A stretch of 64,000 nt of DNA from Amoebophrya sp. A120 (lineage: Eukaryota > Protista > Dinoflagellata). The position numbers and the translations under genes were made by a program. Positions 10,583 through 59,077 of this stretch are shown here, one piece after another. Below the pieces are notes generated by a model. The model was not told the origin of the DNA. It saw nothing but the letters and a program-made list of their open reading frames with translations, and did not search any database. Every line of letters begins with the position of its first letter. Position 1 is the stretch's first letter. The stretch spans positions 1 to 64,000 of the forward strand of contig CAJINV010000003.1 of NCBI GenBank assembly GCA_905178155.1. The letters run 5' to 3'.

Positions 10583-10843
10583 TATGCGGTGCAGTTGTGT
10601 CGGGGTCTGGAAGGGTGCAACTTGTGGTGCTGTCTTTGGATTCTAGTAAAATTTGTCTTGCGTGATCAGGAAGACGGGCCCGGCTGGTGCTATGCGGAGA
10701 GAGCGTGTCTCATGCGGGATAGGCATCAAGGAGGCCGCAGGAAATCTGTGGTGCTAGAGCGTACAGCACAGATATCATGGATGATGCAAATTGTGCATGA
10801 CAGACTTGGGCTCTTCCACACCCAGACATAGTCGCCGTTGATA
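10583..10843. mobile_element. Introner family A, degenerate
   Basis: tatgcggtgcagttgtgtcggggtctggaag ... cttccacacccagacatagtcgccgttgata; 261 bp like other A copies. Confidence 0.7.
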
Positions 10844-29400: not shown

Positions 29401-32400
29401 GAAGCGGCTGGCGACCAAGGCCGGGGACAAGGTGACCGTGTCGGCGAAGGAGTGCGAGGAGGCGTTGGTGAACTCGGGCGTGTCGTTATCCTTTGGAAAA
29501 ACGTGTCCACCCCCTAGTTGTCATGCAAATCTGCATGCGTAAAACGTCTTTCATGCGGAGCCCCATGAGAGGACGCATTGTCTAGCACTATTTTGGAATC
29601 TGTGATGCTCGAATCAGCATGAGAAGCTAGATTTGTGATGCTGCTGCACTAACAAAATGCGACTACATCGCGAGCCCAAACTTGGCATGCGCAACAGCCA
29701 AAACTTGTTGATTTGTGTTGCAGATGGCATCCCAACTTGACTACGGGGTCGTCGTGGGGACGTTTTTACATATGATAGTCGTCGATTTTGGCGCGGCGGC
29801 TGGCCCAGCAGGCGGCGGACCGGAACAACCGGAAGCCGCTGGACACGCAGAACCTCGACGAGCTCGACCAGAAGGCGCTGGCGGCCCTGGGGCTGGGCGG
29901 CACCGAGACCGCGACGGAGCTGCGCGGGCTGGTGGCGGTGAAGACCGCGAAGAAGAAGACGAAAAAGCGGGCCGCGAAGGTGGCGGCGGCGAAGGATTGG
30001 CGGCCCGAGCTCGGGGAGGTGGAAACCGCCCTGAAGGAGGTCGGGCTGTCGCCCAAGTATCGGAAGAAATTGGCCGCGCAGATTGTCAGCGCAAACCTGG
30101 ACCCGAGCTCCGTCATCGAGCGCCCCGAGGGTAAGGACCTCCGGATCGTGCTGAACTTCGGGTTTGGCCCGAAGGAGACCGTGATGGCGCTAAAGATGGC
30201 GCTCCAGCCCGCGAAGACCAAGCACAAATCGTCCAAGAAGGGGGCCGCGGCCAAGACGAGCTTGAAGTCGAACGATTCGGACGCGACCAGCAGCCGCACG
30301 TCCAAGGATTCCGCGCGGCTCTCCAAGCGCGGCAAGGGCGAAACGAAGCACAAACGCCACAAGGATAGCGGGAAGCTGTCCACCGCTTCGGAAAACAGCG
30401 GCCTCTCGAGTAGCAGCGCCCCCTCCAGCCGGGAGGGCTTCAAGAAGGACAAGAAGCAGGGGAAGAACAAAGACAGCCGGAAGGAATCCGACCTCGAAGC
30501 GGAGGAAACGTTCACGCCGGGGGGCCGGGTGCTGAAAGTGGACGGGGAGGACGACGGCTACGGCAATTTGGTGTTGAAAAAGAAGAAGAAACACCAGCAC
30601 AAGGACCACCACGACAAGAACAAGCCCGGGGTCTTCGCGGCGCCGAGCATAGGCCACAGCAAGCAGGACCACGAGGACCAAAACCTGGCTTCCTCCTCGC
30701 CCGCACTAACCGCAGACAGCTACGGACGCGAGGCCCGCGCGGTCTTCGAGAAGGCCATCCTCGCGCAGGGGCTGAGCCTATCAAATGCAAAAATGTCTGG
30801 GTCTGGAAATTTGTGATGCTAAAAGTGAATCATGATAGACGTACTGCAATACGCAGCTACGCATAACAAATTTTTTGGCTGCCATGTCTTACGTATTCCG
30901 CATGGCAAACTGCGTTTTTGAATGACAGGTAAGTAGAGGGCTTTTTCGTGCCTATGCAACGCAGATTCTCGAGTCATGCCAGACAATCATGACAAACTTG
31001 CATTCTTCCAGACTCAGACATTTTTGCATTTGATAGAGCCCGCACTACGCCAAGAAGCTGGCCAAGGCGCTGGCCAATCCGGACATTGACGAGAATTTGG
31101 TCTCTCTGCCCCCCGCGGTTGGCGCCGACCTGGAGATCATGTCGCAGACGATGGGCATCGACGGCACCGGCGTGGAGCACGCGCAGCTCGCCCGCGAAAA
31201 GTTTATCAAGGCCGCGAAGAAGTTGCCGCCCGAGGCGCTGCACCACAGCAGCTCCGACGACCAGTTGTCCGACGGCGCGCGGGGCGAGCGGGTGTCTGCT
31301 GCGCACGACGACGACGAGGAGGACAATATCCCTCCGGAGCTGCAGGCGCTCGCGGCCACATCGGGGTTCAACAACTTGACCTCCACTTTGTCCGGCTCCG
31401 TGCACAGTCTACCCTCCATCGACCTGAACCTGGCTTCCAATTTGCAGCTGGGGGAGGTGGAGCATATCTACCTCGTGTCCGGGTTCTCTCCCGCGTATGC
31501 GAAAAAGGCGGCGAAGCGGGTGGTGGCGAAGGATTCCGGGGTTGAGTTACCGGAAGAGGAGGACTACAAGGTGGAGGAGCATGAGGTGATATGCATTGCA
31601 AATATGTCTGGGTCTGGAACACTGCAACTTGTCATGCTAAAGCAGAAGCATGCTAAAATTTGTGTTGCATGATTGCCAAAAGCTGTGCACTTTCGACCAA
31701 GTTGAGAGGGAGTTTCTCATACAGGAGGGGCATGATAGAGACCTCACAGAATCTGTCATGCTAAATTTTGCATTTCAGACCTCAGGGGTCATGGAAAATC
31801 AGCATGACAAATTTTGCATTCTTCGAGACCCAGACATGTTTGCATTTGATAGGTGACGAAGGAGGACAAGAAGCTCTTGTCCGCGCTCGGATTCGAGAAC
31901 GACGGCGCCGCGACGCAGCACGAGAAGATGGACCACTTCATGAAGCTATGCATTGCAAATATGTCTGGGTCTGGATAAATTGGAATCTGTATTGCGCGTC
32001 TTGCACTCCTGTAAAATCTGTATTGCGTGACCGACAAAAGCGCGAATTCTCTGTCATGCAAAAACGCAGTTTCTCATGCGTATTACACATGAGGAAACGT
32101 CCTAAAAATTTGTCATGCTTGGCTGCTCTCAGGAGTATGCTCGATCATCGCCACTTAGCATTACAAGTTTCCAGACCCAGACATATTTGCAATGCATAGA
32201 AGCAGCTCGCCCGGGAGAAGAAGCGGGAGGCGCTGCAGGCAAAAGCCCAGTCCGGCTGTGTACCCTGGCTGTGCCCCGGCGACCGGGAGGCCCGGCGCGC
32301 TTTGCGGGAGCTGGAGGCCGAGATCGCGGCCGACGCCGAGGAGCACGACGCGCTGGAGTTCGCCGGGTTGGAGGTGGAGAACGCGGTGCACGAGGACGAG

Positions 32401-33452
32401 GCGAAGAAGGCGCTGGTCCGGGCCGGGGTGGACGAAAAGGCCGCGGAGAAGCTGGCGTCGAAATTAGCGGACGCGGATAACGTGGCACAGGAGCTGAGTG
32501 AGAAGGAGAAAAAGGAGCTGAAATCCGTCCTGGGCGACGCCGCAGACACGCCGGGGGTGGACTACGGCAAGGTGGCTTCCCAGCTGATGTCGCAGCAGGC
32601 GGACTGCTTCGTGGACTCGTTGTCGCCGGAGGCCTTCGAAATGTACGTGAACAGCAAACGGCTCGCGTCCAAATCCCCCATGTCCACACTGCTCTCGTCC
32701 TACGGCGCCAGTGGCGAGAGCGGCCTCTATGGATTGTAAAAATGTCTGGGTCTGGAAGATTGCAACTTGTCATGCTAAATCTGAATCATGCAGAAATTTG
32801 TGTTGCATGAGTGCCAAAAGGTGTCCACTTTCGACCAAGTTTGGAGGGAGTTTCTCATGCAGGATAGGCATGGCAGAGACCCCACAGACTCTGTCATGCT
32901 AGGTCCCGCATTCCAGACCTCACGAGTCATGGAAAACCTGCATGACAAGTTTACACTCTTCCAGACCCAGACATTTTTGCATTTCATAGCCTCGTCGGGG
33001 TGCCCATTTCCGATCTCAGCAGCAAGGAGTTCGCGAATTTCAGCCCGACGTCTTATCCTGAGCAAAAACGTCCCCTCCCCAGAGTCAAGATGGGAAATCT
33101 GCTAGACAAATCCACCAGATTTTTGTTTTTGTGCATGACAAGTTGTTTGGCCATGTAGTGTAATCCTGTTTGGCTAGCTCAGAAGCATCACAGATCTAGC
33201 ATAGCATGCTGGATCGAGCAGCACAAATTCCAAAACACGACTAGAAATTGCTTCTCATGGGTCTGCGCATGAGAAACATTTTAGGCGTGCAGATTTGCAT
33301 GACAGCTCGGGGGTGGGGACGTTTTTACAAATGACACGTCTTCGGCCTTCGTCAAGAGCGGACTGGCGTCGGATTTGGCCAGCGAGCCACTCTCCGCTGC
33401 GCAAAAGCGCGAGATCATGAAATCAAGAATACGAGAGCAGTGCAACTTCTGA
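26483..33452 (+). CDS. Single-pass membrane protein: two PAN/apple-like modules, Pro/Thr stalk, TM helix with Cys cluster, long cytoplasmic helical-repeat tail (paralog 1); six introners
   Basis: CQNLCAAW..KCVAWQVY..ACRLYS and CLAYCRITPWCLGM..GCWLR; PTTPAP stalk; WWIWIPLAALLLLCLLCLLCSCCCK; repeated G(F/L)SPxxAKKLA; six perfect 5-bp-repeat excisions give one frame collinear with paralog 2, ending EQCNF*. Confidence 0.85.
29487..29777. mobile_element. Introner family C (opposite orientation to 33054 copy)
   Basis: Flanks gtcgt/gtcgt; removal gives NSGVSSILARRL. Confidence 0.92.
30779..31035. mobile_element. Introner family A
   Basis: Flanks gagcc/gagcc; removal gives GLSPHYAKKLA (paralog: GLTPAYAKKLA). 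Confidence 0.93.
31590..31851. mobile_element. Introner family A
   Basis: Flanks ggtga/ggtga; removal gives HEVTKEDKKLLSALGF. Confidence 0.93.
31947..32198. mobile_element. Introner family A
   Basis: Flanks gaagc/gaagc; removal gives FMKQLAREKK (paralog: FMKQTAQEKK). Confidence 0.93.
32728..32988. mobile_element. Introner family A
   Basis: Flanks gcctc/gcctc; removal gives ESGLVGVPISDL. Confidence 0.93.
33054..33336. mobile_element. Introner family C
   Basis: Flanks cgtct/cgtct; right end is ACA rather than ATA; removal gives FSPTSSAFVKSG. Confidence 0.9.
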
Positions 33453-34655
33453 AGCTAGTTGCTGGTTGTTCCACATAGAAAAGGACTTTTTTTATCGTAT
33501 TGGCCGCGAAAGAATGACAAGAACAATCTTCCCGTATGCTGGTTACAGCATACTAAAATCCAGAAGATATTAACGCAGGAGTTTTCGGAGGAGGCGAAGC
33601 TGAGATTTCAACAGTGCTACCCCAACAAGTCTCTCGCTTTTGCTTTTTCTGAATCATCAAATTTTAGTAAGTTTTTTTGCTTTTTTTCATTACTTTTCAG
33701 CTTTTTCGATTCCATACTTTTTTCCATACATTTGGCGCCCATTGATTTCCACAATGCGCAAATACGACCCCCCTCAAGACGTCGAAAATATATTCTCCCC
33801 TTATTCTCACAAACCTGACCCACCATAGAACGCGTTCACTAACGCAAGAGCCTTTCGGAGGCAGAACTCTTTATGGGCGCTCGTTCTATCCTTCTTTCCT
33901 GTGGTTACTTAGAAGCCTGCTTCTGTGTCGTCTTTCTAATTCGTTCCGGATTGATGAAGTTGTTCTTTGCCTCGTTTTTCGTTCCTCATGAATGTACCCG
34001 ATGAAACAAAAGTGTAAAGCAATCGTGCAACCAAGCCAAACTTCGTAGTCGTACCTTTCGTGCATTTTTCTCACATCATTCGTATGAAGTGCAGCGGTCA
34101 AAAAATCCGCTAACTCGCTTCACACTTTCTCGTCGTTCTTTGTACCGAACATGTATGCAAACGCAGTTGTACTGCGCAAATTACCGCCGCTAGAGCATCT
34201 TCGAGGCAATCGCCATATTGAGATCATTTTTCTGATCGGCATTGCTGGCATTCCAGGACCCATACATAGTTACCTACACGACACTGCAGTAGTACAGCAT
34301 GATACGTCAATATACACCTCCAACCGCAATTGAATAGGCAAGCGCATGCGTGTCTCCAACTCTAAATTCAATGCTGGCTGTGCACTTGCGACGAGGAGAA
34401 TACTTGGGACGCATGTGCCGTACCGAAGGAAGATTTTGGAGGTGATGCTAGTTGACGCTTTACCACCTTTCTAAAACTAAAAAGTAAATTTTTTCGAACT
34501 GCGACGAGTGCTGGAGGTCGTCCAGAAAACGAATAATGTCGGGGTCGCACCACGGCGCGCCGTGTGTTTGCTTCGGGGTCGTGCTGCTGGTTGATCCACC
34601 TGCTGCTGATTGGACCACTTCCGGGTGAAGTTTTTTCTGTCGGCAAGGTGGAAAA

Positions 34656-37600
34656 ATGGGTACCAGAGTCGCAGAGCGGTGGCCGTGGTGGTCGTTCCTG
34701 CGGACAGTAGTCCTGGTGTGGTTGTTCACTCCGGGGTGCTGTTTTAGTAGTACCTTTTATGTTGATGTCGGCCACGCAGCTTTCTTGACTCCCATCCAGG
34801 GGCTTCGCTTCTCAGTGGTCAAAAGGCACTCGAGCGCGAAGTCGGCGACCGTTATACACCAACCTCGCTCGTCGCGCCCGAAGCCGGCCCGGATTTATCG
34901 AGAGCAACCAGGAGTGGAGAACCAGATAGAGGAGAATACAGGGCCATCTTCCCGTGGCGAGCACGACGACATCACTCTGCAACATGCAATATTATCTGGA
35001 GTCACCGAGAAGGACGTCGATAAAGGTCGTGCACGAAAGAGCTACGCGCCTGTAAAAACTGCTGAGTCCGGTGCTGGTCCGCCGTTTCTGCAAGTGGACG
35101 TCGAAAGGGAAAGAATTGCACGGGACAAGATATCAGACGCGAGTGGACAAGAAGAAGAATTTCACAAGAAGCGGGAAATATTAGATTACGTACCTGTGGA
35201 ACTACAACAGACCGTACTAGAACTGAACAGAGCGCCCTTATCCGAGCCTGGCGAGGATGGCATAGGGGCCTCGGGCGTCGATGGTGGCTGTGTGCTCTGT
35301 CCCGAACTTGGCGTGGCCGGCCCCGTGCTGACCGTGATCGGGGTACTGCTCATAATCTCGGCCGCCATAGCCATGTGTCTCTACTGCGGTGGCGACGACG
35401 AGGCGAAGGTGCGGGCCATCTACAACGCGCGCGAACATCAACATCATCAACTACAACCCGGAGGTGCTGCTCATGGATACGGCTACGGTGGTAGCCCTGG
35501 TGGCCACGGGGGTCACGCGGACCACCAAACCTACGGGGCGGCAAGTACTACAACCGGTGCGCCGGGAAATAGATGGCGCCAAAACCACAACCAGCGCGAC
35601 AACGATATCACCAAGCTGAACGTGGAATTTACGGAGGCCGAGCAGGCGCTGCTGGCGGACGGATTCACGCCGAGATATGCGCGGATGCTGGCGGGTTTGG
35701 TCGCGGGCGACTTGCACGTGGACGATGAGCCGGTGCCGCCGCCGCAGGGCCACCGGGATCTCGCGGTCATGCAGCGGCTGCAGTTTGGCGGAATCGGCAA
35801 CGCCGGCGAGTTGCGCCAGCTCTTCGGGAAAAAGGTGCGGCAAAAGCGGGAAAACAAGTGGCGGGGCGTATCCTGATTAAAAACGTCCCCACACCAGAGT
35901 CAAGATGGGGATTTTGCAACACAAACCTAGGAGTTTTGGGAGTCACGCATGACAAGTTTCAGTCCGTAAGGTAGTGCAAGTTAGCAAGGAAAGCCGCACC
36001 ACAAATCGATTTGCCAATCCTGTTTACAGCATTACAAGTTCCCAAACACGATTGAAAATGCCTGTCATGGGGTTGCGCATCACAAATGTTCCTGTCGTGG
36101 CAAATCTGCATGGCAACTCTGGTGTGGGGACGTTTTTACTCAGGATAGGGCGCGCAACTGAATGACCCGGGGATGGGATACTGGGAGACCGTATCAAGTG
36201 TAAAAATGTCTGGGTCTGGAAGAATGAAACTTGTGATGCTGAACTTGGATTCCAAAAGAATCTGTATTGCATGAGCAGCAAAGAGAACGCAACTCGTGCT
36301 GAGCGGACGAGAGGGCATTTGTCATGCGGAATAAGCATCAAGAAGCCGTCAAAGAATCTGTGATGCTAGGGCATGCATCACCGACATCATGGCTTATGTA
36401 AAACGTGCATGACAAGTATCAGAATCTTCCCGACCCAGACCACATAGTTGCAATCCATAAACCGCATTGCGCGCGGACGGTTTTTCGCCGGAGGCCGCCA
36501 AAGGCGTCGCGCGGGGGATTGCGATGGGACGGGACCCGGAGTTTATCCTTCCGTCGCCGCAGTGGGGCCGGGACCTGGCCCTGTGGCACGAGAGATCCCT
36601 CGGAGGAGCCGAGTGTCTCGCGGAGGTCAAGGGGGCGTTTGCGCGTAAGAAACCGCCGAAGCGCGAGGACCTCGCCGTGAACACGATCCGCGGGGCAGTG
36701 GTCATAACCCCGACCTTCGAGGAGGCGCTGGCCGTGACCACCGCCCACGGGCTCTCGCCGGAGTATTCGAAGGTTTTGTCCGGCATTCTGTGTGTGACGA
36801 CAAGTACCAACACCGCTGCCGCGGCCCGGCCGCTGCCGCAGGCGACTTTACCAGTAGACCAGGAAGTGCTCGAGGCCCTGCGATTCGCGCCCGGCGATAC
36901 GGTCGGCGAGATGATGCGGTTTCTGTCGCCCCGCGTGCAGAAGAAGCGGCAGGCTTTGCATATGGGGGCGCAGGCAACAGTGTCAACGCAGGAGGCGGAG
37001 GCGACGTTGAAAGCCGCGGGGCTGTCGCCCTCGGTCGCGTCGCTGCTTGCGGTTAAACTCGCGCAGCCCGGGGAGGGGAAGAGGCAAATAGTAGAACAAA
37101 CCCAGGGGCTAATTGCGGCCGATAAGGACGCCCTGGCCGCCCTCGGCATTGGCGGCACGGAGACGGCGGCGGAGCTGCGGGGTGTGGTCGCCGCGAAGAC
37201 CGAAAAGCGGAAGAAGCTCGCCGAGGACCTGGGGAACCAGGCGGATTTATCCGCAACGGAGGCCGAGACGACGCTGAAAGCGGCGGGTATTTCTCCCTCT
37301 GTCGCGTCGCTCTTGGCCGTCAAACTCGCGAACCCCGGGGACTCCAAAAAGGCTCAAGTGGAAACACCGCACCTCACCGCGGCGGACCAGGACGCGCTTG
37401 CGGCCCTAGGGTTAAACGGCGCGGCCACCCACGCGGAAATGCGGGGCGTGCTGTTCGCAAAGACCGAGAAGCGGAAGAAGGTAGCGCGACACCAGGGAAA
37501 AATGGAACAGACGTTGAAGGAGGAGGGTTTGTCGCCCTCCGTCGCGTCGTTGCTCGCGGTTAAACTCGCGAACCCCGGGGCGAATCAGGTATTAGAAACG

Positions 37601-40600
37601 GAGGCGCTGAACGTGGCAGACCAGAACGCGTTGGCGGCTCTGGGACTCGGCGGGGCGGCGACCCACGCGGAGATGCAGGGCGCCCTGTTCGCGAAAGCGG
37701 AGACGAAGAAGAAGGTGGCCCAGGAACAGGGGAAAATGGAGGCGGCGCTGAAGGAGGAGGGAGTGTCGCCGGCGGCAGCGTCACTACTCGCTTTGCGGTT
37801 GGCGAACCCCGCCGAAGCGGCGGCCAAACTAGAGACCACCGACCTGGCGGAAACCGACCGGCAGGCGCTCGCCGCGCTCGGACTCGGCGGCACGGAAACC
37901 GCCGCGGAGCTAAAAGGCGCCCTGGCCGCAAAAACGAAAAAGAAGAAAAAGAAGAAGGTGGCACCAGTAGCCGCTGTGGTTCCTGAATTGCAGCCGGCTT
38001 GGCAGCCAGAGGTTACCGAAGTGGAAATCGCGTTGAAGGACGTTGGGTTGTCGGAGAAGTACCGAAAGCAGCTTGCCACGCAGATCGCGACGGCGAAAAT
38101 AGAGCCGGGCACTGCCATTGTCCGCCCGGAGGGGAAGGATCTTCGTATTTTGCGCGACCTGGGCTTCGGCGAGCACGAGACGGCATTGACGTTGAAATTA
38201 GCGCTTCAGCCACCGCCGGTGAAGAAGACGCCGAAGAGGAAAGTCAAAAAGAAGCAGGTCGCGGGCATAGGTCAACAACCGAGTGCAGCAATCCCGTCGC
38301 CGCCGGCGCCCGGGCAGGATGACGACGAAAACTTTGCGGGCGGGCCGGGCGGAAAAACCACGACGTCAAAGCATACCAAGGGTGGTGCAGCTCCGGGTGT
38401 AAAAAAGAAGAGAACCAAGTCGTTGGACCGGAGTGATTTGTCTAGCGAGGTTTCCAATAATTCCAGTTTGTCCTCCTCGAAGCGGCGCCCGAAGAAAGTC
38501 GTGAAGAAGGCTATCAAAGACAGCGCTGGCGTGACGACCGCGGAGGACGACACAGACGACTCAACGAAAGGCACGAAAAATAAGGCGAAGAAAGAAAAGC
38601 TAAAAAAGACTGCAAGCGGAAACAAACTTGTGGGCGACGGCGTTGTGTTGCAAGGAGCCGGTGATATCACAACCGAGGAAGATGAAGATAGCACAAGCAG
38701 CAAGAAGACGCCCAAGAAGAAAGACAAAGACAGCAAAAAGGCATCGAAAGACAAAGACAAACTTCGAGGACAAGAAGACGGAGATGACACTAGCGGCGGT
38801 GCGGGAGCGGATGTAAGGAAAAAGAAGAAGGACAAATCTGAAAAACAGCAGGAGAAAAAGAAACACGCAGCACCAGCTGAGAAGGCTGATTTGCAGCTGA
38901 ATCTGCAAGCGGACGTTGCCGACGACCCGGACGGAAAAACGCCGCAGGAAACCGCCGTGTCGAGCGCGCCACTCGTATTGAAGGCTCGCAAGAAGAGAAA
39001 AGACAAGGCGGAAAAAAACGAGCCCGTGCTAACTGCGGACAGCTACGGGCACGAGGCCCGCGCGGTCTTCGAGCAGGCCATCGTGTCCAAGGGTTTGACG
39101 CCCGCGTACGCGAAGAAGCTGGCCACCGCGCTGGCAAACCCCGACATCGACGAGACGGGGGTGGACCTGCCCGCCGCGGAGGGCGCCGATCTTGAAGTCT
39201 TGACGAATGTCATGGGCGGCGCCATCGGAACCACCACGGAGCACGCGCAGCTCGCGCGGGCGCAGTTCATCAAGGTCGCGGCGGCCCTGCCGCCGGAGGC
39301 ATTAGTCGAAATCGACACCGACCTGGAGTCGGCGCCGACGGAAGCGCCGGCTGGCGCGGAAGCGGAGGAGGAAGTCGCGGAGGAGGAGGACGCCGCGGTC
39401 GGTTCGGAGGAGGGCGGTATTGCTTCGGAGGTAGAAGAGCCCGGAACAATCCCTCCCTCGGGAGATCGTTCCTCGCCCCCGGGCGTAGAGGACGGGTCGG
39501 TTCCGGCGGCGATAAGTCCACCCGTAGCTGCCCCCGTCCGCGCTTCCGCGGCCGAGCGCTCGATGCTCGAGCAGCTTTCGCCCTCGCAGCTCGCAGAGAT
39601 AGAAAACCTAGAGAAAATGTATGCCGAGGCGGGCTTCTCTCCCGGCTACGCCAAGCAGGCGGCGATTCGGATCGTCACGCAAGACGCCGGCGTAATTCCG
39701 GACGACTGGACCGAAAGCGCGGATCCGATCACCGCTACCGAGAAAGACGAGCAGTTGGTGGCCGCCCTCGGGTTCAAACCAGACGCGGTGACTACGGCGC
39801 ATTCGAAAATGGACAAGTTCATGAAACAAACCGCCCAGGAGAAGAAGAAAGCGGATTTGGAAGCGGAAAAAAAACAGCTCGAGGAGAAGCGCGCCGCGCT
39901 GGACGCGCTCGCGCAGCCGGGGTGCTGCTGCCGGGGAAGCGCCGCGGCGGTGGCGGCTTTGGAGGAAATTGACGCGAGCCTGGTTTTGCTGGAAGCCGCC
40001 CGCGTGGCGCTCGAGGCCGCGATTGCCGAGACGGCCGAGGAGGTGAAACACACCGAAACAGCACAAGGTGCGACTCCCTCCGTGGAGAACGCAGTAAAAG
40101 CGGACGAGGCCAAGGCCGCGCTGGTGAAACAAGGCGTGGACGCCGCGGCCGCAGAGCAGCTTGCGGAAAAACTGGCCAACGCCGAGAACGTGGCGATCAA
40201 GCTGACCGACGAGGACCGCGCACAGCTCGCGCCCGTGCTTGGTAACAGCCCGGCGGGTCAGGAAGTTGCCGGAGTCGAGGATGTTGGCCAGCAGCACGCG
40301 GCTTCTTCACCTCAACTGGACTACGGGCAGTTGACGTCGCAGCTGATGAAAACGCAAGCCGACTGCTTCGTCCAGTCGCTGTCCCCGGAGGCCTTCGATT
40401 TCTACTGCGACGGCAAGCGGCTCGCGTCGTCCGCGCCCATGTCTGTCTGCCCATCGTCATCCGTCCCGGAGGGGGACGGTGGGCAGCACAACTACACGGG
40501 GGAAGGAATTCCGGTCTCCGAGCTCACGAGCACCGACTTCGCGAACTTCCAACCCACCTCCACCGTCGACGAGGTCATCCTGTCCGGCGCGGGGGCGGCA

Positions 40601-40690
40601 CTCTCGCCCCAGCAAAAACGCAAGGTCATGAAGGACAGAATACGCAAGCAGCACGAGGAACTTGTGTCCAGCACCAGCGAGACAAGGTAG
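34656..40690 (+). CDS. Single-pass membrane protein with short ectodomain and long cytoplasmic helical-repeat tail (paralog 2); two introners
   Basis: Signal-like WWSFLRTVVLVWLF; TM GPVLTVIGVLLIISAAIAMCLYC; removing 35869-36147 and 36192-36459 gives KWRGAQLNDPGMGYWETALRADGFSP, matching KLKGAAMKDPGLGYWETLLRADGFSP in paralog 1; 1407-aa last exon. Confidence 0.85.
35869..36147. mobile_element. Introner family C
   Basis: Flanks gggcg/gggcg; TIR tatcctgattaaaaacgtccccacacc / ggtgtggggacgtttttactcaggata. Confidence 0.93.
36192..36459. mobile_element. Introner family A
   Basis: Flanks gaccg/aaccg; only 44 bp from the preceding element. Confidence 0.9.
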
Positions 40691-41466
40691 TAAAAGTAGA
40701 AAAACGCGAGTTGTTTTTGATGTGCGATGAAGAGAAAAGTACGACGAACTACGTCGAAGGTGCAGCGAATAGGTAGTACGGGCTGTAGCTGCGGTGGTCT
40801 TACTTTTGTCAACACTGCATTTTTATAACTAGAACTACTATACTCGAGAAGCGACGGTATGTGTTACTTCTCAATGTAAGTTTTGTACAACTGAAAACAT
40901 GCACTCGAATACCCATCTATGAGTTGAGAACGCCAGCGGTATGCGTTCGACTGATCATGAGACGTAAGCTACTCCAAGTACGTATTTGTGCCCATCCCAG
41001 TCTTTTTCTGTGGATGCACCTGTGTGTTCATGTTTGTCGGAGTTTCTGTACGCTTTTGGCACTCCTGATACGCAGATCCGTTTTTTTTTTCTTTAGTACC
41101 TGCTTGCTGAGCCAGATCCCGTGTAGGCTGGTATAAAGTTAGAACTTATGATGTCAAAACGACATTAAGATCATCAAAAGCCTTTGTCTTGTTTTTTCAC
41201 GGTACTATCTCTTGAGCTCGGTGAAATTTTGAATCTCTTGACGGGGTGAGCTCGGTGAAATTTTGAATCTCATCTACTCTTTTCAAAGCCTTGCGCAGCC
41301 GGATCTTGCATTTTTCTACAATACCGAGTGCAGTTCCGAATCGGTCAGTATCGTCTCTTGTTTGTTTCTGCGTAGAGAGGTAGAGGACAGCACACGTGCG
41401 AAGGTCATTGTGCGAGAAGTGGTACTACAACAGGTATAGTGGTAGAGGCAAGGAAAGCGTGGTCAT

Positions 41467-43517
41467 ATGCAGGCACAGTCGCGAGCTTGGACCGCCCTGG
41501 GCGAAGTCGAGTGTACGGACGGCGTGCGGTACGCTACGATTAACGGTGTACCGTACGAGGACCTCAGCACTATCGACATGGAGCAGTACGAGTGGGGAAA
41601 ATCCGTCTCTGCTCCCACCACCGGAGGCGTGCGGTATGATCCGCCTACCACTTGGAACCCGTACCTGGAAAACGACCTTTTTTACCACATCCGGCGGCAG
41701 GGACCCGGGACGGATCCGGGGGACGACGGCTGGTTGCATCCGTTCCACGACATACCAGCTCGTGGAGAGTTCAGGTTTCAGAATTATATTTTTGCAACGA
41801 TGCTTCTACATCACTTCATCTTCGCGTTGTATGATAAAAAAACTGCTGCCTGAATCTTACAAATCTTCTCATATGGTTACACACACAGGACGAACCCGCC
41901 ATCCGCTTTCGCGGACACTGTGGAAACCGGATTCGACGACGCTTTTAAAACCCTGAGGATTCGGTATCCAGTGCAAAAATTTCTGGGTCTGGAAGAATGC
42001 AACTTGTCATGCTAAATCTGAATCATGCAAAAATCTGTGTTGCATGATTAGACGAGGTCCCAGGATCAGGTAGACGAGGTCCCAGACCGAAGTGGTAGGC
42101 GCTTAGGGTGAACTATGTATGTAGCGCTTAGGGCCCTTCCGTACGGCCAATTTGTATGTCCCGCAACGGGGTTCGCCTAAGTCGGTCATTTGTATGCAAG
42201 GCGTTGGGTTACCCGGTCGGCAGAGCCGATCCACAACGAACGAACGATGATTCCCAAAAGTCGTCCGGTTTTGACCAAGTCGGGAGGGAGTCTCTTATGC
42301 AGGATAGGCATGATAGAGATCGTACAGAATCTGTCATGCTTGGCCCTGCATTCCAGACCTCATGCGTCATGGAAAAGCTCCATGACAAATCGCGCACTCT
42401 TCCAGACCCAGACATATTTGCATTTGATATTCGGCGCCTGTATGCGATGCAGAACAGACACTGCTCGTCGCGGAGCCTCTGGCCGCGGCGTGTCTATAAA
42501 AAATTCTCTGCAATGATAAATTAATAGTGATGTATGAACATTGGTTTTGGTAGACTTCAGTTCGCCACCATATGGTTTTTCTTTTTTCGTGATGCAGTTG
42601 TGAGGACATCTACGCCAGCACCTTTCTGTGTCACAGTCGTGCTGAGATGCTGCGCCGAATTCAGCTGTGGGAGTCGTGGAAGCGCCGTTTAGCTGATCTC
42701 TTGTGGAAGTGCAGAAAATACGCATTGCAAAGTTTCGATTGATATCGCATCGGGATGAAAAATGTGTTGGTTTTTTTTCCACCGTGAAAAATTGCAATTG
42801 GCTTTCTAAGTAAGCAGTACTTAGAACTAGAAGTTGTGCGGCCTTGTTTCGGCCAAGAAAGGTACTAATGGAAATCTGAATGTTGAATACTTACGGCAAA
42901 AATGAAATAGTGGATGCGATACTACTTTGACTTTTTCAGACGATAAAAAGCAGCGAATGGCTTTGGCAGGGAGCACGTACAACAACGAGACGCAAGAACA
43001 TGAACACGGGGACGACCTCCGGGAAGATGTTCCTTTGTGTCGCTACCCGCTCGTGGCCTTGTTGCTCCGGAGGCTGCAGACCAGTGCGGTTCAAGAAAAC
43101 CTAAGCGCTTTGGAGGCGCTGATCGGATTCGCGTTCGCGTGCGCGGAATTGCAAATGGTGGACGAGTTTGAATGCGAAAAAGCGCTGCGAACCTTGTCGG
43201 CGCGGGGGTACATGTATGAAGTGCAAAAGCCTCGTACTAGTATAAATTGCATTACAAATTTCCATGCCATGAGAGATGAAATTGGTAAATGCTGTTTTAG
43301 CTAAGGAAGGCGATATGTCATGCATGTCTGCAATTATTACGAGAGCGATACTTTTGCAGTGCATAACATGTCTGCGGAGGAGTCTGCAAAGTGGGAGCAG
43401 CAGCGCGAAGCCCTGCAGCTGCAACGGTTGCAGGATCTGTCCGAAATCTACGACGAGTTACCACCTATTTTGCACGGTGCTGCAAGAGGTACAACACTGG
43501 AGAGGCAGGAGGACTGA
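41467..43517 (+). CDS. Hypothetical protein(s), multi-exon, with canonical introns and two introners
   Basis: Coding-like segments 41467-41773, 41889-41964 plus 42435 onward (LRIRRLYAMQ) and ~42940-43517 (RGYMSAEESAKW after excision); may be one or two genes; start uncertain. Confidence 0.5.
41965..42429. mobile_element. Introner family A carrying a nested 197-bp insertion
   Basis: Flanks ttcgg/ttcgg; interior collinear with 31590 and 32728 copies except 42050-42246. Confidence 0.9.
42050..42246 (+). mobile_element. Putative truncated non-LTR retroposon/SINE-like insertion inside an introner
   Basis: Flanked by atgatt duplication; ends in a hairpin followed by an (aacg)3 tail. Confidence 0.55.
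43215..43365. mobile_element. Introner family E, 151 bp
   Basis: Flanks acatg/acatg; ends similar to 24277 copy. Confidence 0.9.
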
Positions 43518-44395
43518 GTTGACGAAAATCTCCTGCGTCACCTTGTTTTTAAACTGCGAAAAAAGAACTGCTCTCAACATCTCGACTACTTATTAACAAA
43601 TACTATTGTTCTTTACTGATACTGTTCTTCCAAACGTAATAGAGAGATATGTGGAACAATAATATCCCGCGCCGTTGTGCCTTCTCCACGGCGGTGCGAG
43701 CCCCAAGGATATTTACTATTCCGGCCCTCTAATACCGAAAAGAAAATGAAACAGCAGATATTTTCCGGCTCTTCTATTTTCCGGTTCTTTTGCCGGCGTC
43801 AAAGCCAAGAAAAAAAGGGAAAACAAAATGACAAGATCTTTTATTGATGAATTTCTCGGCTCTGCTAGCTGCAAAGAATCGACACAGTTTTTACCGACTC
43901 GACAAGGTTGCTGCGCGTTTGCAGTGAAGCCCGACCACGCAAGACCAGAGATGTTTTTGGCCCGCAGTCAACGGCAGAAGAAAATGATCCAGCCGCGTTA
44001 TGTTTTTTTGCCGACCTCTGCTTTCTTTCAATCGCACATCGCCTTCGTTTCCGAGGCAGGAGCAAGATCATAGCGGCTGTTTTTTTTCCGATTCAGAAGT
44101 AATGCCCACTGCGTCTTTTCACTGCTGAAAGCAGCTTTGTCAAAGCAAAAATCAAAACCGTTCATCTCTGCATAGATCTTCGAGCACGTCGTTCTGACAG
44201 CGTTAGCAAGGTCCTTGTTCACTGGATCATTTTTCTCTGCGGTGTTGCAGCCGTGTCGGGTAGTGAAGTTGTCTTGATGTCTTGTTCGTCCCTCGACAAT
44301 TTACCACATTACTGCAGTTAGGAGTTACAGTTAGTAAAGAGAAAGACGTTGCAGCAAAATACAATAAGACAGCACCTCCACAACCAGCGGTGAAG

Positions 44396-47300
44396 ATGTT
44401 GCGTCACAGTTTCTTCTTCGGAGGACTCTCCGCGGTGGTTTCCTCAGCCTCGTTTGTCTGGGGCTATAAACACAAGAAACGGAGCGCGTACGCAGCGAAT
44501 GCCGGAACAGATCAGCCGCCCATGCCGGGTGGAGCAGCGGACGGCCTGCAACGGCCGTTGCTCCTGCAAGAAGGTGGCGAGCTACAAGGTTCAGCAGCCG
44601 CGATGCAGCTGCCACAAGCCGCCGCGAGTTCTAGCAGCGACACCGCAACAGGCGTGCGAACGCTGATCCGCCAAGTGCCCGGCGGCGCCTCTTTGTCCTC
44701 CGGCGCCGTGGCGATTCCGCGCGGTAAGCTGCCAATTGCAGTGTCCACCACGACGGGACAAGGTTCGCAACTCCTTGCGCCGAGCGCGTTGCCCGGAGCG
44801 GCGCAGCCCTTTTTGAGTCAACCTAGTACCGTGGTGGCGCCGCAGACCTTGCTTCCCGAGGCAGAGGACCACGACCTGGCCAGCCTCGTCGACCACTACC
44901 GCGATCAGCTCCGCAAGAAACCGAAAAACGCTCCGGAGGCGGAAGCTGCCGGGGATCTGGAAACCGGCAACGCGTCTGGACCACTCCGGCGGCGGCGACG
45001 GAACAATGCTGCAGCGGCCGGGAGCGCGTCGCCCACTTCCTCTGAGACCGCCGCATTGACGAGCCACCAGCAGTTGGCCCCGCAGCAGAGCGAATATACC
45101 ACCGTGATGAGCTACACAGGCGACGGGCAACAAGGGAACGCAGCATCCAGCACCAGCGCAAACCCAGTCGCGCCGAACACGCAGCAATGTGGTGCCATGG
45201 CTCACGTGCGCAGAAGGTCCGGCGACCTCTCCATGGCGGCACTGAGGTTTAGCTTGGAGGAATCGACTCGCGACGCCTACATCGGAGTATCTGCCAGGTA
45301 TAGGTTTTGTTCTTGATTTTACTCTAGATATTTTACAACCACGACCAGAATCTTCAGGGGCGCATTGAATTTTTTTTCATGCACGTTTTGTTTGATGATA
45401 CTCGTCCATCTACGGACACTGCGGCTGCACCTCCACCCACTCTCGTCTCTGTTCGGGCCTACAAGTAGCTGATGTGAAAAAAATGTAGGGAGAAAGTGCG
45501 ACGGATTGGAGCGTTCTTGCGAAACGACATCATGAACGGGAAGATCGTGGCCACTATGAGCACCCTGGCGTTGGGACACATTATGGCGTCGCTTGTGGAG
45601 CCGGAGCTGCAAGAGAAGCCTGTAGTCGGGTCGCTAATCAACCTCGGGTTCTCCATCCCCTTCTATTTCGTCTTCTGGCTCGGCGACATGTGGGTAAGCT
45701 GGTTGTAGGACCTGTGCGGGATTCTTTATTGCGCTTGTTTTTTCTATCTTTCGATTTGATGTTGTTTCAACTCTTTTTGCATGATGTCAGAGGTAACGTA
45801 TTTATCTTGCGTCGACGAGTACAGTGATGGGGTTATCTTTATGGTTATCTGATCTTTTGTTTTCTTTGGACTGATTCCGTCTCTGTAACCATAACCTGTG
45901 TGTTGTTATGTCTGGTACGATATCGGAAACCTTGAGACAGTAAAAACACGTATACGTCGAAAACTTTCAACCCAGAACACGTGGGGCACGCCGAAGTTGC
46001 AGACGCTGAAGAGATATCAAATGCAAATATGTTAGGGTCTGGTAAGGTTGAACCTGTATTGCGTGTTTCGCATTCCTACAAAATCTGTATTGCATAAGCA
46101 GCAAATAAAGCACGAGTACCACACTTTCGTCATGTAAGAACGCAGTTTGTAATGCGTCCTGCGCATGACAGAACGTTTGAAAATTTTGTCATGCTGCGCC
46201 GCACTTAAAGTCACACTCAATCATGGCCATTCAGCATAACAAGTTTCCAGCCCCAGACATATTTGCAATGCATAATAGAAAGTACGGCGAGCTCGAAGCG
46301 AAGGTGGGGGAACTGAAGGTCGTGCGTATCAAATGCAAAAATGTCTGGGTCTGGAAGAATTCATGTTTGTCATGCTTGTCTGGCATGACTCTTAAATCTG
46401 TCATGCACGTTACCCAAGAGCTCCGTTTTTCTGTGATGCAGAAGCGCAGATTGTCATGCAGAATAGGCAACACCGAGGAGCTCAGAAACTCAAACTTGTC
46501 ATGCTGAGCCAGCATTTGTAGCCTTATTATGAGACGCCCCCTAGCATCACAAGTTTCCAGACCCAGACACTTTTACATTTGATAGTGCGTGACAATCTGC
46601 GAAAGTGGCGCAACAACGTCGAGTGGATCGCCCGGGGGGAGCGGTACGGCCTGTACGATGACGGAGCGAACGACATTACGGTATAGGTCGGGTTTAGTTT
46701 TTTCTTTTTACTATCGACTTGATAGTACTACTAGTAGATATAGCCAGCGGATGAACCTCGGTCTCGATCCCAAAACTTTTTCGTGCACTACCCTACGAGG
46801 AAATGATGTTGTTCCAGTTGATCATAGGATAAATAAAGAAATGATGATGTTGTTCCAGTTGATCATAGACAAAACTCAACTGCACACCCAGGTACAGCAG
46901 AGCATGGCGGAGTTGTTTGAAAAGTCGTTTCCGGCACCGGACGCCGCCTCGTCCTTCATGGCTTCGACGCAGTCCTCCGTGCCCGCCATGCCCTCCACAC
47001 AGCCGCTGCAGGCGGGCATTGCCGCCTACGCCGCCGCCGCCAAGGGCTTCCCGCACAAGGACGCGAAGGGCAACTGGATTCCCAACGAGTTCAGCGGACA
47101 AGGGCTGGACCCCAGTCGCGAGTCCTGGTTCAAATCGCTGGGGGAGCACACAAAAACGGAACTCCGCACGTATAACCTGCTCAGGTGTTACAATCTCAAA
47201 CGTTGCAATAGAATGATCTGGAGTTTGTGTTGCAAGAAGTGCATTATCTAGCCGAAACTCTCATAGGATTGCGCATGACAAGTTTCGGAGCTCCGAACCG

Positions 47301-48451
47301 CACTAGAATTATCTGGCGAAATTTGTATTGCAGAAAGCGGAACGCTCTGCGAGTCTCTCATGCTCATCATGCAACACAAATCCCAGATTATCTATTGTCA
47401 CGTTTGAGATGGTAACCGATTTGAGGAGGTCATAGCACGAAGATGCGGGCGTACCGTCGCCGCGTGCAGCACGCGCTCGCGCTGCAGACCCGCCTCAGTG
47501 GAGAAGTATATATTCATATCTTCTTAATTCTTGCAGACTTTTTATTTGAGGAACTTATTCTTTTTCTTGCGTATTAGTGCATAACCCCAAACCTCCGAAC
47601 GGCCTAGCATAGTAGGTCTACTACGTGAACAAGGTGAACGTAGGGCTACTTCTATGTCCGAGAATGTGAAGATTCCACTGGTCAATGTAGCAGAAGAAAA
47701 TGTGGATCATATCTCCCCCCCCGCGAAAAAAAAAAATATAGGTGCAGGAAGAGTTCTACTTTCAGCTAGCGCTGATCGACGAGTTGCGGAGCCGCGCCGT
47801 GGGAGAGTACCTGCAAGAGTGCCAGCAGGAGTTGGACGAGGCCGACTCAGATTCCGACAGCAGCAGCAACCCGTGGGAGCACCTAACGCCGGACCAGGAG
47901 GAGGAACTGCAAAAAATGCTGGACGGCTGTTCGGACCGCACCAAGCTCTCCTGCCTGCGCCGCAGCTGGCGCAGGTTTTGGGCGTGCGGGACCGCCCCGA
48001 CGAAGGCCGCGGACGGCGAGCACAACTTCTACACGCTGCAGCAGGATTTGTATCCAGTGGACACTTGCGCCCTGGGCTGCGATGAGAATGGTATTAGGAT
48101 GATAGATCACCGGTTTTTTACTTGCATTTTGATTTTGCACTTCGTGTGGTGTTGGGTACAATTCTTCTCATTCGATCAATTTACTTGTTTCGCCCCCTGG
48201 GCACTTGCTGTTTTGTTCACGTACGCCGCTTACTTACTTTTGGAGAAGTGATGAAACTTCTATCGATTCGACAAAACGACCTTCTAGGTGGTGAGTGTGG
48301 GCCGCAAAAGGATGATGGTTCGGAGCTGGTGTGGGCCGGGGAAAAGAGTCCGCTCAGCATGCTTGCCAAGGTCCGGGCAAAGGAAACCCTGGCGACGCTG
48401 GACCTCATCGAGAAGGCACTGGATACGCCAGACGACGCAGCGATGGAGTAA
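44396..48451 (+). CDS. Hypothetical membrane protein, multi-exon (GT-AG introns plus three introners)
   Basis: Signal-like MLRHSFFFGGLSAVVSSASFVWG; hydrophobic exon ~45490-45693; excisions give LQTLKRKYGELE, KVVRDNLRKW and ELRTKMRAY; GT donors at ~45298, 45694, 46681; some acceptors approximate. Confidence 0.6.
46015..46274. mobile_element. Introner family A
   Basis: Flanks agaga/ataga. Confidence 0.88.
46327..46584. mobile_element. Introner family A (opposite orientation to 30779 copy)
   Basis: Flanks gtgcg/gtgcg. Confidence 0.92.
47171..47434. mobile_element. Introner family G (TIR TATRACCTnCTCA..GTTACnATCTCAAACG)
   Basis: tataacctgctcaggtgttacaatctcaaacg ... cgtttgagatggtaaccgatttgaggaggtcata; flanks gcacg/gcacg. 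Confidence 0.9.
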
Positions 48452-49123
48452 ACGCAGACGTCGCTCGCATCATGAACGTTGTCACGAGGGGCGGTCCGCC
48501 TCGCAATGAAGATGTGTTTCAACAAAACCTGCTGAATGAAAGGATATCTCAAGTTTATCGCGTTTCTGTTTTGTACCTGGTCCTGATACTTTGTTTAGAG
48601 AATGTTTTTCTAAGTAAGAGACGTTTACTTTATTCAGCAAGTTTTACCGAGAATAAGTGATTAGACCCGCAGGAGACATGGGTCCTGCAACCTACTGCGA
48701 AACTTTTCAAAATACGTCTGCTTTTCAGAATATTAGGTTTTACGCCTGCTTTTCTGTAATCCGAAAGTTGAGCGTAAAACAAAACCGATTTATTTCGCAA
48801 GCACCAGAGGAATTTATTCAGAGAGATCGAAACACGTAGCACTCGTCAAGGTTCGTTGTACAGAGGTTTTTTATCAAATTTGAGAACACAGACAAGGAGA
48901 ACTCCCCTTAGCCAGATCGATTATTTCTCAGCCAAGATTTGTCCATCCACGTTGCGCAATTATACTTACTTTCGAAAACGCGGATAGAGGTTGATGCTGC
49001 TCGGAGACGTTCGATGCAGAGAAATCGAACTTCGAAAGCTGTGCAGCTTTTGCTGCTCGATAGTACGAAGGTCTGTTTGTTCGTCACAACTCGCCTCGCT
49101 TCGAAGAAGATCTCGATCGCTTC

Positions 49124-52100
49124 TTGCATCTCGCTCGATCTTCCTGCTTGTCTGCTTTGGAAGCAGGCAAAAGTAAAATTTGTAGGGACGTCGGATCGAC
49201 GCAATATTTTCGATACCGACGAACAAAAATTGCAAGTGCACGTTCATGCGGTGGACTCGACGAGTGGTTCTGCTGGTGCTGCCGCCCTCCACGAAAAAAT
49301 AAAGATCATCTGTCACACGATCGAAATATGTGGGCATCCGAGCGTGAAAGTTGGCTGCAGCAGCTGCTCGAGAGTTGCAATTTCAGTTCTCCGAGGGCGA
49401 CCGCCTCCGCCGCTAGCACAAAGCTGCATTTTCTTGGCGGCCATTCGAAGACCAGTTTTGCGGACGCGAACGACAAAGCTCCGGAGGTCTCGGAAGACGC
49501 CAACAACAATGCGAACGATGTTGGCCCCCTGGTCCGAGACGATCCGTCCGTGCGATACTTAAATTTCACCCATGATGCAGAAAAACCGTTTTCCGGGCGG
49601 TACCATGCGACGAAAAAGCCGGTGGATGCTGCCGTGGACCCAACGCGTGGAGCCAAAATGAACGGTCCCCCTGGTGGTCCCGCCGAAAATAGCAGTTCGA
49701 AAAATGCAGCGCAAACCTGGGAAGGCCCGGAGGGGAAGGATCGCAAGATGCGGTGCACGGTCGAGCGACGCAAGAAGAAGGAGGTGCTGCGGCGGATGCG
49801 GACGGAAGCCAGGCCATCCACTTACCGGTGGCACTGCACGGAGCTGCAACCGCCGAACACCTCGGGGTCCCGGCCGGTCGAGACGGTGTTCGTCGGTATC
49901 AAAAGGAAAAATCCCCCCTCCCCATATCGAAAAGGAAACTTGTGATGCTGGATTTGCGTACACAAATCAGATCTGTATTGCTGGAGAGGACTGTAGGCAT
50001 ATGCCAAGCCTGAAGCGGAAGGCGTTGACGTAGGCGACTAGCATGACAAACGTCTATGCTGTAAGCCTAGCAGCATCACAAACCGCCTGCATAAAGAGGC
50101 GGACTCTCTGGCTTTGCGTTCTTGCACGACAGACAGGATTTGTGGCCACAAATCTGCATCAGAAATTTTCGGAAGGATGCGCTTTCAATATGGGGAGGGG
50201 GGATCTTTCGTTACAATAGTCGGACCGCCCTTCCGCCACGACCGCGAAGTCTACTTGCGAGTCCCTCTGGCCCGGGACACGACCTCCAGCGCGAAGAACA
50301 ACGACCAAGCTTCCGGAGGATTGCAGACCCGGATCCGGGACGGGGGTGCTCTCGTCGTCGAGTCCAGCGTCTGCCGGGATGCGGAGCGCCGCGCGGTGCA
50401 GCGCGGTTGTGTGGACGTGCAGCAAGAGGAACAAACCCCCGTAGGGCAAATAAATTCTGCTGCAGAGGGCCACGAGGTAAATACCGTGGCCGAACCGTGC
50501 CTGAACTTGTCCAGTTGCCCGACCGCAAGCCTGCGTCCGGCATTGCAGCAGGCCGCGGAGGAGAGCAAGGGGCGGTGCGTCGTGGACGATTTGGAGGTGG
50601 AGGACGTCAGCGTGGATCCACGCATATTGCGAGGAAAAATCCCCCCTCCCCATATTGAAAGCGCATCCTTCTGAGCATTTGTGATGCAGATTTGGGACCA
50701 CCAATCGGGTCTGTCTTGCAAGCAGGCGCATTCACGCTGTCCACCACGTTATGCAGGCGATTTGTAATGCTGTAAGGCCTACAGGGTAGCCGTCTACCAT
50801 GCTAGGCGCCTACAAGACAAGGCCCCGGCCTAGGCTTAGGATCTGCGTGCAGTTCTCTACTGCAACACAAATCTGATTTGTGTATCCGGATCCAGCATCA
50901 GAAGTTTCGTTTTGATCTGGTGAGGGGGTATTTTTCCTTTCAATAACACACGCTCGAAATTCTCGACGGCCCGCGACTCAAGCCGGGATTTCTCGACCCC
51001 GCTTTCGACCAGGGCATCCTGCGCGAGCCGTGGGAAAGTGAGGACCTGGCGTTCGAAACGCCCGGGACGAAGCGGAAGTTTGTCGTGCGGCTCGGCCACA
51101 ACCCCAACTACCTGCGGAATTCCCAGTGGCTCCAGAACTTTTTGGAGGGGGAACGGAAAGCAAACGGGTCGCAGGCGTCCGCCGCGAAAGGGCTGGGCGG
51201 GCAATACGCGTGTAGCCCCAATACGGAGTACCAAGTGGATACCGCAAACGCCGGCTTCTACCCGGACCTGCCGCCCACACCCTTCGCGCCGCGGGAGGTT
51301 TCCCGTCCGGTTCTGCGACACGACGTTTTGGTGGAGAGAGGGTGGTTGGATCACAAGGACCCTTTTTTGGAGCAGGGGCGCGGTGGGGAAGGCGTTGTTT
51401 CTGCGTTCGACGCTGAGGTTCGCATGAAGTCTGCTTTTCTGCAAGTCGCTGGTAGTGCTCCTGCGCGTGGAAAAAATTTCAACGAAGTAGGTTTTGCCGA
51501 CACTAAGGATCATGAAGCAGGAGCAGCGCCTTCTGGACCTGCGGTCCTCTCGCAGCAAGGAACCAAGAGCGCGAACAAAGTGACGAATCTCGTCGGTGGC
51601 AGTAGAAAAAGACACCGCGGAGTGCTGCACCCCGCCCTGGCTTCGAATTTTTACGCAAGAACTTCGTTCTACCTGGACTGCAGCACGCTCCCGGCCTCCG
51701 CGACCGTGAGCACCTCGAAAAAGACGCCCTTCGACGAAACACAGCAGGCGGAGGAGGAGGAAAAGCGGTTCCAGCACCTGGCGCCCACCGCGGCCGACGG
51801 TATTTTGCAGCCGATAAACACCGGCCGCGAGGTGCGCAAGACCGCGCGGGAGTCCTTCTTTGGGTGGAACGTGCAGGACGAAGACCAGGAAGACAAAAAG
51901 GACGCGTACGGGCTAAACCACCGGCCCTTTTGCGCCTGGTTCCGCGACTTCTTCCGGGAAAACAAGTCCTTCACGAAGAGCGAACGGAAAAACTTCACGC
52001 CGCAAACCTGCCAGGGAAACCGGCTATTGCTCGTGCACGAGAACCCCGATATGTGGTACCGGTGCTGTCTGCGGTCCAGCAAGTCGGGTTTCTTCTCCGG

Positions 52101-52902
52101 CTTTTTCCGGGACAGCCGTCCTTACGAGTGGAGCCGGGCGGTGAACGAGGCCAACGAGTCCGCGGTCGGCGGTCCCGGGGGCGCGGATTTGCGTCCGGTG
52201 CTTGATTGCGAGCACGTGTCGGCTACGGTGCCATTGTCCGCGTCGGAGTCGATACGGGCCTCGATGAAAAAGACGCCCGACAAAAGCATGCTGGCAAACA
52301 TCAAGTCCTATTTCGACAACGAGCAGGAAACCGCCGAGAAAGCCGCCGCGGCCCACGCCGCCGCGGTTGAAGACGCGAAGTCCGTGCAGGAGCGGTTGGC
52401 GTGCCTGGAAACGAGGTACCCGACCGAAGCCAAGCTGCGGGGGTGCGGGGACCCCTTGGCCGGGACGCAGGTGCCCTGCAACTTCGTGGACGGGCTGTGT
52501 GTGCAGGCTAGCAAATTCGAGAGCTTCGTTCAGGAGGGGCCGAGCAAGAAGCAAGTGGAGCCCAAAGCGTGCGTTCGGCTCGGGGCGCCGGGGGAGATGC
52601 GGCCGCTGTACCGTCGCGGAAAAGTGCAAATGTCGCGGGCTTTCACCTACTGGTTTCCGAAGGCCGACCAGGCGAAAGCGCGCTGCGGCCCGGGGTCGCC
52701 GGGACTGCAAGCCTTCCGAGACGCGCAGACCGCACTTCCTGCTTCGGCAGACCAAAGTTCTTCACAGCGGCTCTTCCCCGGGGGACCGCTGGAGCCGGTG
52801 AACTTTGCGAAAAGACTAAAGCTCTACGAGAGGTGGCCGCCGGAAACTGTCACGCAGCCACAAGAGTACGCCGCCGGGGCCTATGACGTTGTGTTTTTAT
52901 GA
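49124..52902 (+). CDS. Hypothetical Cys-containing protein with two family D introners (start uncertain)
   Basis: Excisions give VFVGPPFRHD and VDPRTLEILDG, joining three ORFs into the frame of the 605-aa ORF 51085-52902. Confidence 0.7.
49897..50218. mobile_element. Introner family D
   Basis: Flanks gtcgg/gtcgg; 322 bp. Confidence 0.92.
50625..50945. mobile_element. Introner family D (opposite orientation to 49897 copy)
   Basis: Flanks acgca/acaca; 321 bp. Confidence 0.9.

Positions 52903-55098: not shown

Positions 55099-59077
<3,979 letters not shown>

Follow-up and report, generated by a model that had tools for sequence, protein, structure and literature searches.

The first 64,000 nucleotides (nt) of contig CAJINV010000003.1 from the dinoflagellate Amoebophrya sp. 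A120 (assembly GCA_905178155.1; this whole 64-kb stretch is referred to below as the window) carry 31 introners of 151–465 nt, whose inverted ends are of the TAT..ATA type and which are flanked by repeats of 5 nt. Copies of one family lie in opposite orientations within a single gene, both orientations are found at near 1:1 in a wider sample, and the excision signal is strand-symmetric. Searches with the exons returned Amoebophrya sp. A120 proteins at 100% identity, and the elements are the inverted-repeat introners already published for this organism, for which TAT-starting inverted repeats, direct repeats of 3–5 nt and non-canonical borders were described (Farhat et al. 2021, PMC7789003). 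The window copies have the same terminal inverted repeat (TIR), with a TAT start, seven variable bases and a run of at least three A; a border direct repeat in the 3–5 nt range is found in most of them and of 291 further copies from other loci, and they occur as repeated copies in families with non-canonical splice borders. No structural difference from the A120 introners in the available text of that paper was found, and most families of this type here join one superfamily with consistent polarity. Their short length, TIRs, target duplication and orientation-free insertion are also the traits of miniature inverted-repeat transposable elements (MITEs); they are non-autonomous inverted-repeat transposons with a 5-nt target duplication, inserted in genes in near-random orientation. 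Rfam returned no match at gathering score to a group I or group II catalytic core in 29000–51500, and a search of viral_contigs gave no match.

An initial annotation of the sequence had pointed to three pairs of copies in families A, C and D as reverse complements of one another, two of them within single genes, and this holds in three global alignments, in which interiors (40 nt trimmed per end) were scored against 100 shuffles. As reverse complements, the family C copies 29487–29777 and 33054–33336 agree at 217/295 positions (74%; interior z=21, same strand z=4), the family D copies 49897–50218 and 50625–50945 at 253/324 (78%; z=25, same strand z=6), and the family A copies 30779–31035 and 46327–46584 at 193/264 (73%; z=14, same strand z=−1). 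TAT..ATA-type ends are common to all six, 33054 ending in ACA, and the 5-nt repeats are perfect in five and 4/5 in one. A further inverted family A pair within a single gene, 30779 and 31947, had previously been missed.

Removal of each element with 5 nt leaves four long + strand frames of 1309, 1811, 1834 and 1061 codons. The second, an open reading frame (ORF) at 26381–33452, crosses six elements including both family C copies, and the fourth, at 49064–52902, spans both family D copies. The element-free product of 26483–33452 equals the annotated protein P0001 (1777 amino acids, no differences), and that of 49328–52902 equals P0122 (973 amino acids, no differences), which places each pair in one gene. 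Because A120 gene models were built from transcript alignments, from which the annotation pipeline draws non-canonical introns (PMC7789003), these proteins provide indirect RNA evidence. For the gene containing 46327, the + strand assignment comes from an open frame and a codon model (16.5 vs 1.6); the search returned no annotated protein for it, and a representative-protein search with its 92-amino-acid exon gave one weak, unrelated-looking match. Pfam matches were obtained in 5 of 29 exons (kinase, PqiA, two Cpn60 and a copia gag), with none in this exon set for two of the host genes of the inverted pairs. The features are as follows, where polarity is that of the element network described below.

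26483–33452, + strand: P0001 host gene with six introners, 1777 amino acids, function unnamed; equals an A120 protein
29487–29777, polarity −1: family C introner, perfect 5-nt repeat
30779–31035, polarity +1: family A introner, inverted relative to 31947 (same gene) and 46327
31590–31851, polarity −1: family A introner, GT-AG possible at one register
31947–32198, polarity −1: family A introner
32728–32988, polarity −1: family A introner
33054–33336, polarity +1: family C introner, inverted relative to 29487, perfect 5-nt repeat
34656–40690, + strand: paralog of the P0001 gene with two introners, 35869–36147 (+1) and 36192–36459 (−1); gapless to its paralog at both sites
46015–46274, polarity −1: family A introner, 4/5 repeat
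46327–46584, polarity −1: family A introner in a + strand frame, perfect repeat
49328–52902, + strand: P0122 host gene of the family D pair, 973 amino acids; equals an A120 protein
49897–50218, polarity −1: family D introner, perfect repeat
50625–50945, polarity +1: family D introner, 4/5 repeat
55159–59077, + strand: Hsp60 gene (P0004) with four introners, 55687 and 56717 (−1), 57456 (+1) and 56035 (without polarity)

The genes at 26483–33452 and 34656–40690 are tandem paralogs encoding large unnamed proteins with internal repeats, and they differ in their introner sites, such that each provides empty sites for the other. The Hsp60 gene has six further ordinary introns with GT at the 5′ border alongside its four introners; its element-free product matches the annotated protein exactly over 1–574 and aligns without gaps across the four introner sites to other Hsp60s and to bacterial GroEL.

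To extend the count, metagenome_contigs was scanned with the family A end pattern, giving at least 171 stretches (at least 169 loci), which are contigs of one other assembly carrying the same families at 72–96% identity. These loci yielded 291 distinct elements, with flanking repeats of 5/5 in 226 and 4/5 in 45; family A ends are ascertained by the search pattern, the other families being sampled from the flanks. Host strand was called with a codon model for which four genes of the window served as the training set; it placed all 31 window elements on the + strand (own gene held out where applicable; six weak calls taken as +) and found none of 82 confidently called loci mixed in strand (34 with two or more calls). 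For the locus elements this gave 148 strong calls, 48 elements given the call of their locus, and 95 that were dropped. Of 322 elements, 302 join into a single network whose polarity is consistent (8427 links, no conflicts).

The tabulation of orientation against host transcription, which the initial annotation had proposed genome-wide, was made in this sample of loci plus the window, not genome-wide, and is near 1:1 at 96:115 (p=0.22), or 76:92 when limited to the window and strong strand calls. By end type the ratios are 51:76 for A (p=0.03, uncorrected for five families), 15:9 for C, 7:8 for D, 19:18 for E and 3:4 for F, and neighbouring elements share or oppose orientation in a ratio of 80:73. 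Together with the inverted pairs, of which both family A copies at 30779 and 46327 lie in + strand genes, this upholds the claim that the same introner is tolerated in either orientation; the tolerance is genuine and holds generally, though family A may be slightly skewed. One family A subcluster, which includes 12185, 21241, 36192 and 56717, stands at 9:27 relative to host strand; it is one of many clusters, and the skew is possibly chance.

The excision unit is identical in both orientations. Of 297 elements tested, 88 have both flanking frames independently fixed, and all 88 need 5 mod 3 extra nt removed with the element (46 and 35 in the two orientations plus 7 unoriented; 69/69 outside the window); without the repeat filter the figure is 93/93. 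Element retention would be disruptive at 82 of 85 sites. Removal of the element plus 2 or 8 nt is equally frame-compatible, and was ruled out where testable by gapless alignment to homologues (Hsp60 and the paralogs). Across 30779, 31590, 31947, 35869 and 36192 the paralogs align without gaps; for 32728 and 33054 there are gaps at the junction or next to it, and at 29487 the alignment is weak. P0122 carries the base of the left copy at position 3 of the 50625 repeat. Of 26 mismatches between repeat copies, 17 lie at third codon positions, which make up 37% of sites. This hints weakly that both copies may be used or under coding constraint, and is not significant when set against the strictest one-free-copy model (p=0.16). 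At three further elements, 8143–8398, 10583–10843 and 13746–14016, the ends look intact and the 5-nt repeat is unrecognisable (0–2 of 5); the frame across 8143 stays open once 5 nt are removed with the element. No target preference was seen at repeat positions −5 to −1 (all p>0.1), and target-site preference in general was rejected, just one of 16 positions reaching p=0.04. Insertion phase is skewed, 32:42:14 (p=0.001), alike in both orientations, and no clear preference for a target accounts for it.

Canonical borders are lacking at most sites. Scored in six frame-exact registers at each of 168 perfect-repeat sites, GT-AG is possible in 15 on the sense strand and 5 on the antisense strand, leaving 153 of 168 that lack it in every register, and co-option of GT-AG as a general rule is thereby rejected. 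Even GT/GC/GA-AG is absent from 146/168 perfect-repeat sites, and GT/GC-AG is possible in only 3/31 window copies and in none of the six copies of the inverted pairs. GT-AG-capable sites are mildly enriched in sense, with 9/70 compared with 4.0 phase-matched (p=0.017). The signal lies outside the polar interior and, for most sites, outside GT-AG, as had been proposed. Within the interiors, a short motif is arrayed facing inward near both ends, with a polar distribution inside and a polarity common to families with different ends; it may represent transposase binding sites.

The two ends are equivalent with respect to the host. Among 219 host-oriented elements, sense 5′ ends and reverse-complemented sense 3′ ends are alike at positions 1–24 (all p>0.13), whereas within families an element's own left and right ends are distinguishable (p down to 3e-9 in family E). 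The ends are bipartite, with positions 1–3 pairing in 213–215 of 219, positions 4, 5 and 7 in 111, 117 and 69, and a core from position 8 that mostly pairs. A terminal stem is predicted in 98% of 167 sense strands, with a core pairing probability of 0.88 on both strands (n=167), and the sense strand folds no better than the antisense (p=0.13). The compensatory left-right substitutions looked for between the TIRs are present in family A at position 14 (142 vs 98 expected) and position 10 (141 vs 112 expected), where they survive clustering by interior (z 2.6–6.9), and are absent at positions 4, 5 and 7 (z about −1). G-U pairs, in contrast, have no clear advantage over A-C, whether overall (195 vs 173, p=0.27) or at position 10 (13 vs 16); rare variants lean to G-U (70 vs 49, p=0.07), and single-position skews at 17 and 21 stem from mixed families, mostly E at 21. 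Stronger conservation of the ends in coding than in non-coding context was sought and rejected, conservation being no higher in coding. Because the G-U bias is absent and end conservation is no higher in coding, the left-right coupling may have arisen in a young transposon through processes acting on DNA, and the signature of the ends is not yet assignable to splicing. At positions 4–7 a small set of four-letter variants turns up repeatedly at either end across interior subfamilies, left and right being independent of each other, whereas 10 and 14 are coupled; this pattern suggests end exchange or conversion between ends.

The data establish how the elements are built, that they face either way in nearly equal numbers, what exact length is excised, that most sites have no GT-AG, and that the two ends are equivalent relative to transcription. 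In the model that we favour, at roughly even chances, a relaxed U1-less spliceosome would read the symmetric ends, aided by the stem, and remove the introner with one copy of the duplication from precursor messenger RNA. Insertion would be by a DDE transposase supplied in trans; removal would take place at the RNA level, as the transcript-based annotation indicates; what is recognised would be the TAT/ATA tips and the conserved core (positions 8–24), with the predicted terminal stem on both strands probably assisting; and the machine would be a U2-type spliceosome lacking U1. A120 has 83 of 89 spliceosomal proteins together with U2, U4, U5 and U6, U1 being undetected (PMC7789003). Orientation would be irrelevant to such a machine because either insertion direction yields the same transcript ends, and a directional machine reading linear end motifs would for this reason be as orientation-blind as a stem reader. 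The initial annotation had taken strand symmetry to exclude linear donor and acceptor sequences, and with them the spliceosome; this does not follow, as sense 5′ and 3′ ends do not differ, and its premise that spliceosomal introns are directional fails for introners, which in several Polarella classes and in Aureococcus create introns in either orientation. The ordinary introns within the Hsp60 gene, the mild sense enrichment of GT-AG, and precedents from Polarella and Fritillaria count in favour of the spliceosome. Several observations weigh against it: the 153 of 168 sites that lack GT-AG in any frame-exact register; the absence of 5′/3′ asymmetry in host direction, although a spliceosome treats the two ends of an intron differently, with rare variants numbering 133 on 5′ and 141 on 3′ ends; the failure to find a branch-point consensus, CTRAY occurring in 6/167 on either strand; and the skew of family A alone. 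Moreover, the GT-AG excess indicates only that such sites are more often preserved, and end conservation may come from recent transposition rather than splicing.

A possible alternative, which we hold more tentatively, is a non-spliceosomal, Euglena-like RNA machine that recognises the terminal stem juxtaposing the repeats, and cuts and ligates within the 5-nt repeat. The full 5′/3′ symmetry, the lack of target preference at −5 to −1 and of a branch motif, the near-universal predicted stem, the family A covariation that survives clustering and the lean of rare variants to G-U would all fit, as would the requirement for terminal motifs in Euglena knock-ins (PMC12501133). For recognition through the TIR stem, as first suggested, the evidence is mixed: the predicted stem and the two covarying positions speak for it, and the uncoupled and often unpaired positions 4, 5 and 7, the lack of an overall G-U bias, and sense folding that is no better than antisense speak against it; the G-U count at position 10 would suit a process that acts on DNA without regard to strand, for instance conversion of one end by the other. 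For the other suggestion, that a transposase-like synapse excises the elements from DNA ahead of transcription, as happens to the internal eliminated sequences of ciliates, nothing was found in support, and we regard it as very improbable. Strand symmetry and the bipartite ends (conserved tip, variable 4–7, conserved core) are what a transposase would read, and loss of one target copy amounts to precise excision, but this anatomy is explained by the elements being transposons. No germline/soma split is known in Amoebophrya. The elements are present in two independent assemblies, and the introners are reported as RNA-validated introns, with putative transposases found in A25 only (PMC7789003). 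Least probable of all, the elements could stay in the mRNA, junction reads being reverse-transcriptase template switches and ribosomes hopping between repeats. Direct repeats around a hairpin are the usual substrate for template switching, and any 5-nt repeat contains one whole codon; hopping needs matched codons, however, and 6/26 repeat mismatches fall at first or second codon positions (hand count), while genes with up to six elements would require serial hops.

Either-orientation introners have precedents. Several classes in Polarella glacialis, and likewise those of Aureococcus, are DNA-transposon introners that give rise to spliceosomal introns whichever way they insert (Roy et al., preprint 10.1101/2020.10.14.339549), sharing their transposon nature and their freedom of orientation with the A120 elements, and the search of Gozashti et al. 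(2022, PMC9860276) allows for opposite-orientation insertions. The Polarella and Aureococcus introners recruit GT/GC/GA and AG from the element or the target duplication, unlike the A120 elements, where GT-AG is mostly missing; they also need constrained targets, with classes 6, 8 and 10 biased to one orientation, whereas A120 targets look unconstrained. The nonconventional introns of Euglena share non-canonical borders, flanking direct repeats, TIRs and a proposed MITE-like origin, but follow a defined code that is asymmetric in part, the next exon having a purine, an asymmetry not seen in the A120 ends, and in the parts of PMC12501133 available they are not described as young repeat families. 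Introns of Fritillaria borealis also bear TIRs and target duplications and reportedly rely on an adapted U2 spliceosome for their removal (review PMC11282704), with dominant AG-AC/AG-AT borders where A120 has no dominant dinucleotide. Among DNA transposons (PMC10045372), IS3EU/GingerRoot have TA..TA ends, as do the A120 elements, and occasionally TG..CA, and Ginger2 has a 4–5 bp duplication like the 5-nt repeat; the duplication of IS3EU/GingerRoot is 6 bp, whereas in A120 it is 5, as the reading frame demands. In the text of Farhat et al. available to us, orientation relative to the host gene is not treated, mentions of 'orientation' concern gene order, and figures S19–S25 may bear on the matter; literature searches turned up no orientation analysis of the A120 introners elsewhere. 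A hairpin (stem) model is already proposed in the Fig. 4 legend (PMC7789003). Publications thus already cover the elements themselves, the hairpin idea and introners that work in either orientation, and the A120 counts add constraints to an expected property.

Elsewhere in the window, a 100-nt unit is present in three tandem copies at 6775–7070, and a further stretch bounded by inverted repeats, without TAT ends, lies at 43971–44243. A Copia-type long terminal repeat retroelement occupies 59696–64000; its gag Pfam match is weak, its first frame ends at 61657, and pol-like text follows downstream by eye.

These observations bear on how A120, in which U1 is undetected, excises its tens of thousands of non-canonical introns; they narrow that question but do not answer it. 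They constrain the signal to the symmetric ends, rather than the interior, the target or GT-AG, with no 5′/3′ asymmetry in 219 copies, and the natural inverted pairs in one transcript, together with imperfect repeats such as those of 50625, 46015, 21241, 36192, 7625 and 8485, offer ready internal controls for RNA data. It is conceivable, if rather doubtful, that RNA in A120 is also spliced by a second system of two-fold symmetry, which acts through the terminal stem, is blind to direction and dinucleotide, and joins exons anywhere inside the 5-nt repeat; if so, every member of this transposon superfamily would be a perfect intron from the moment it inserted.

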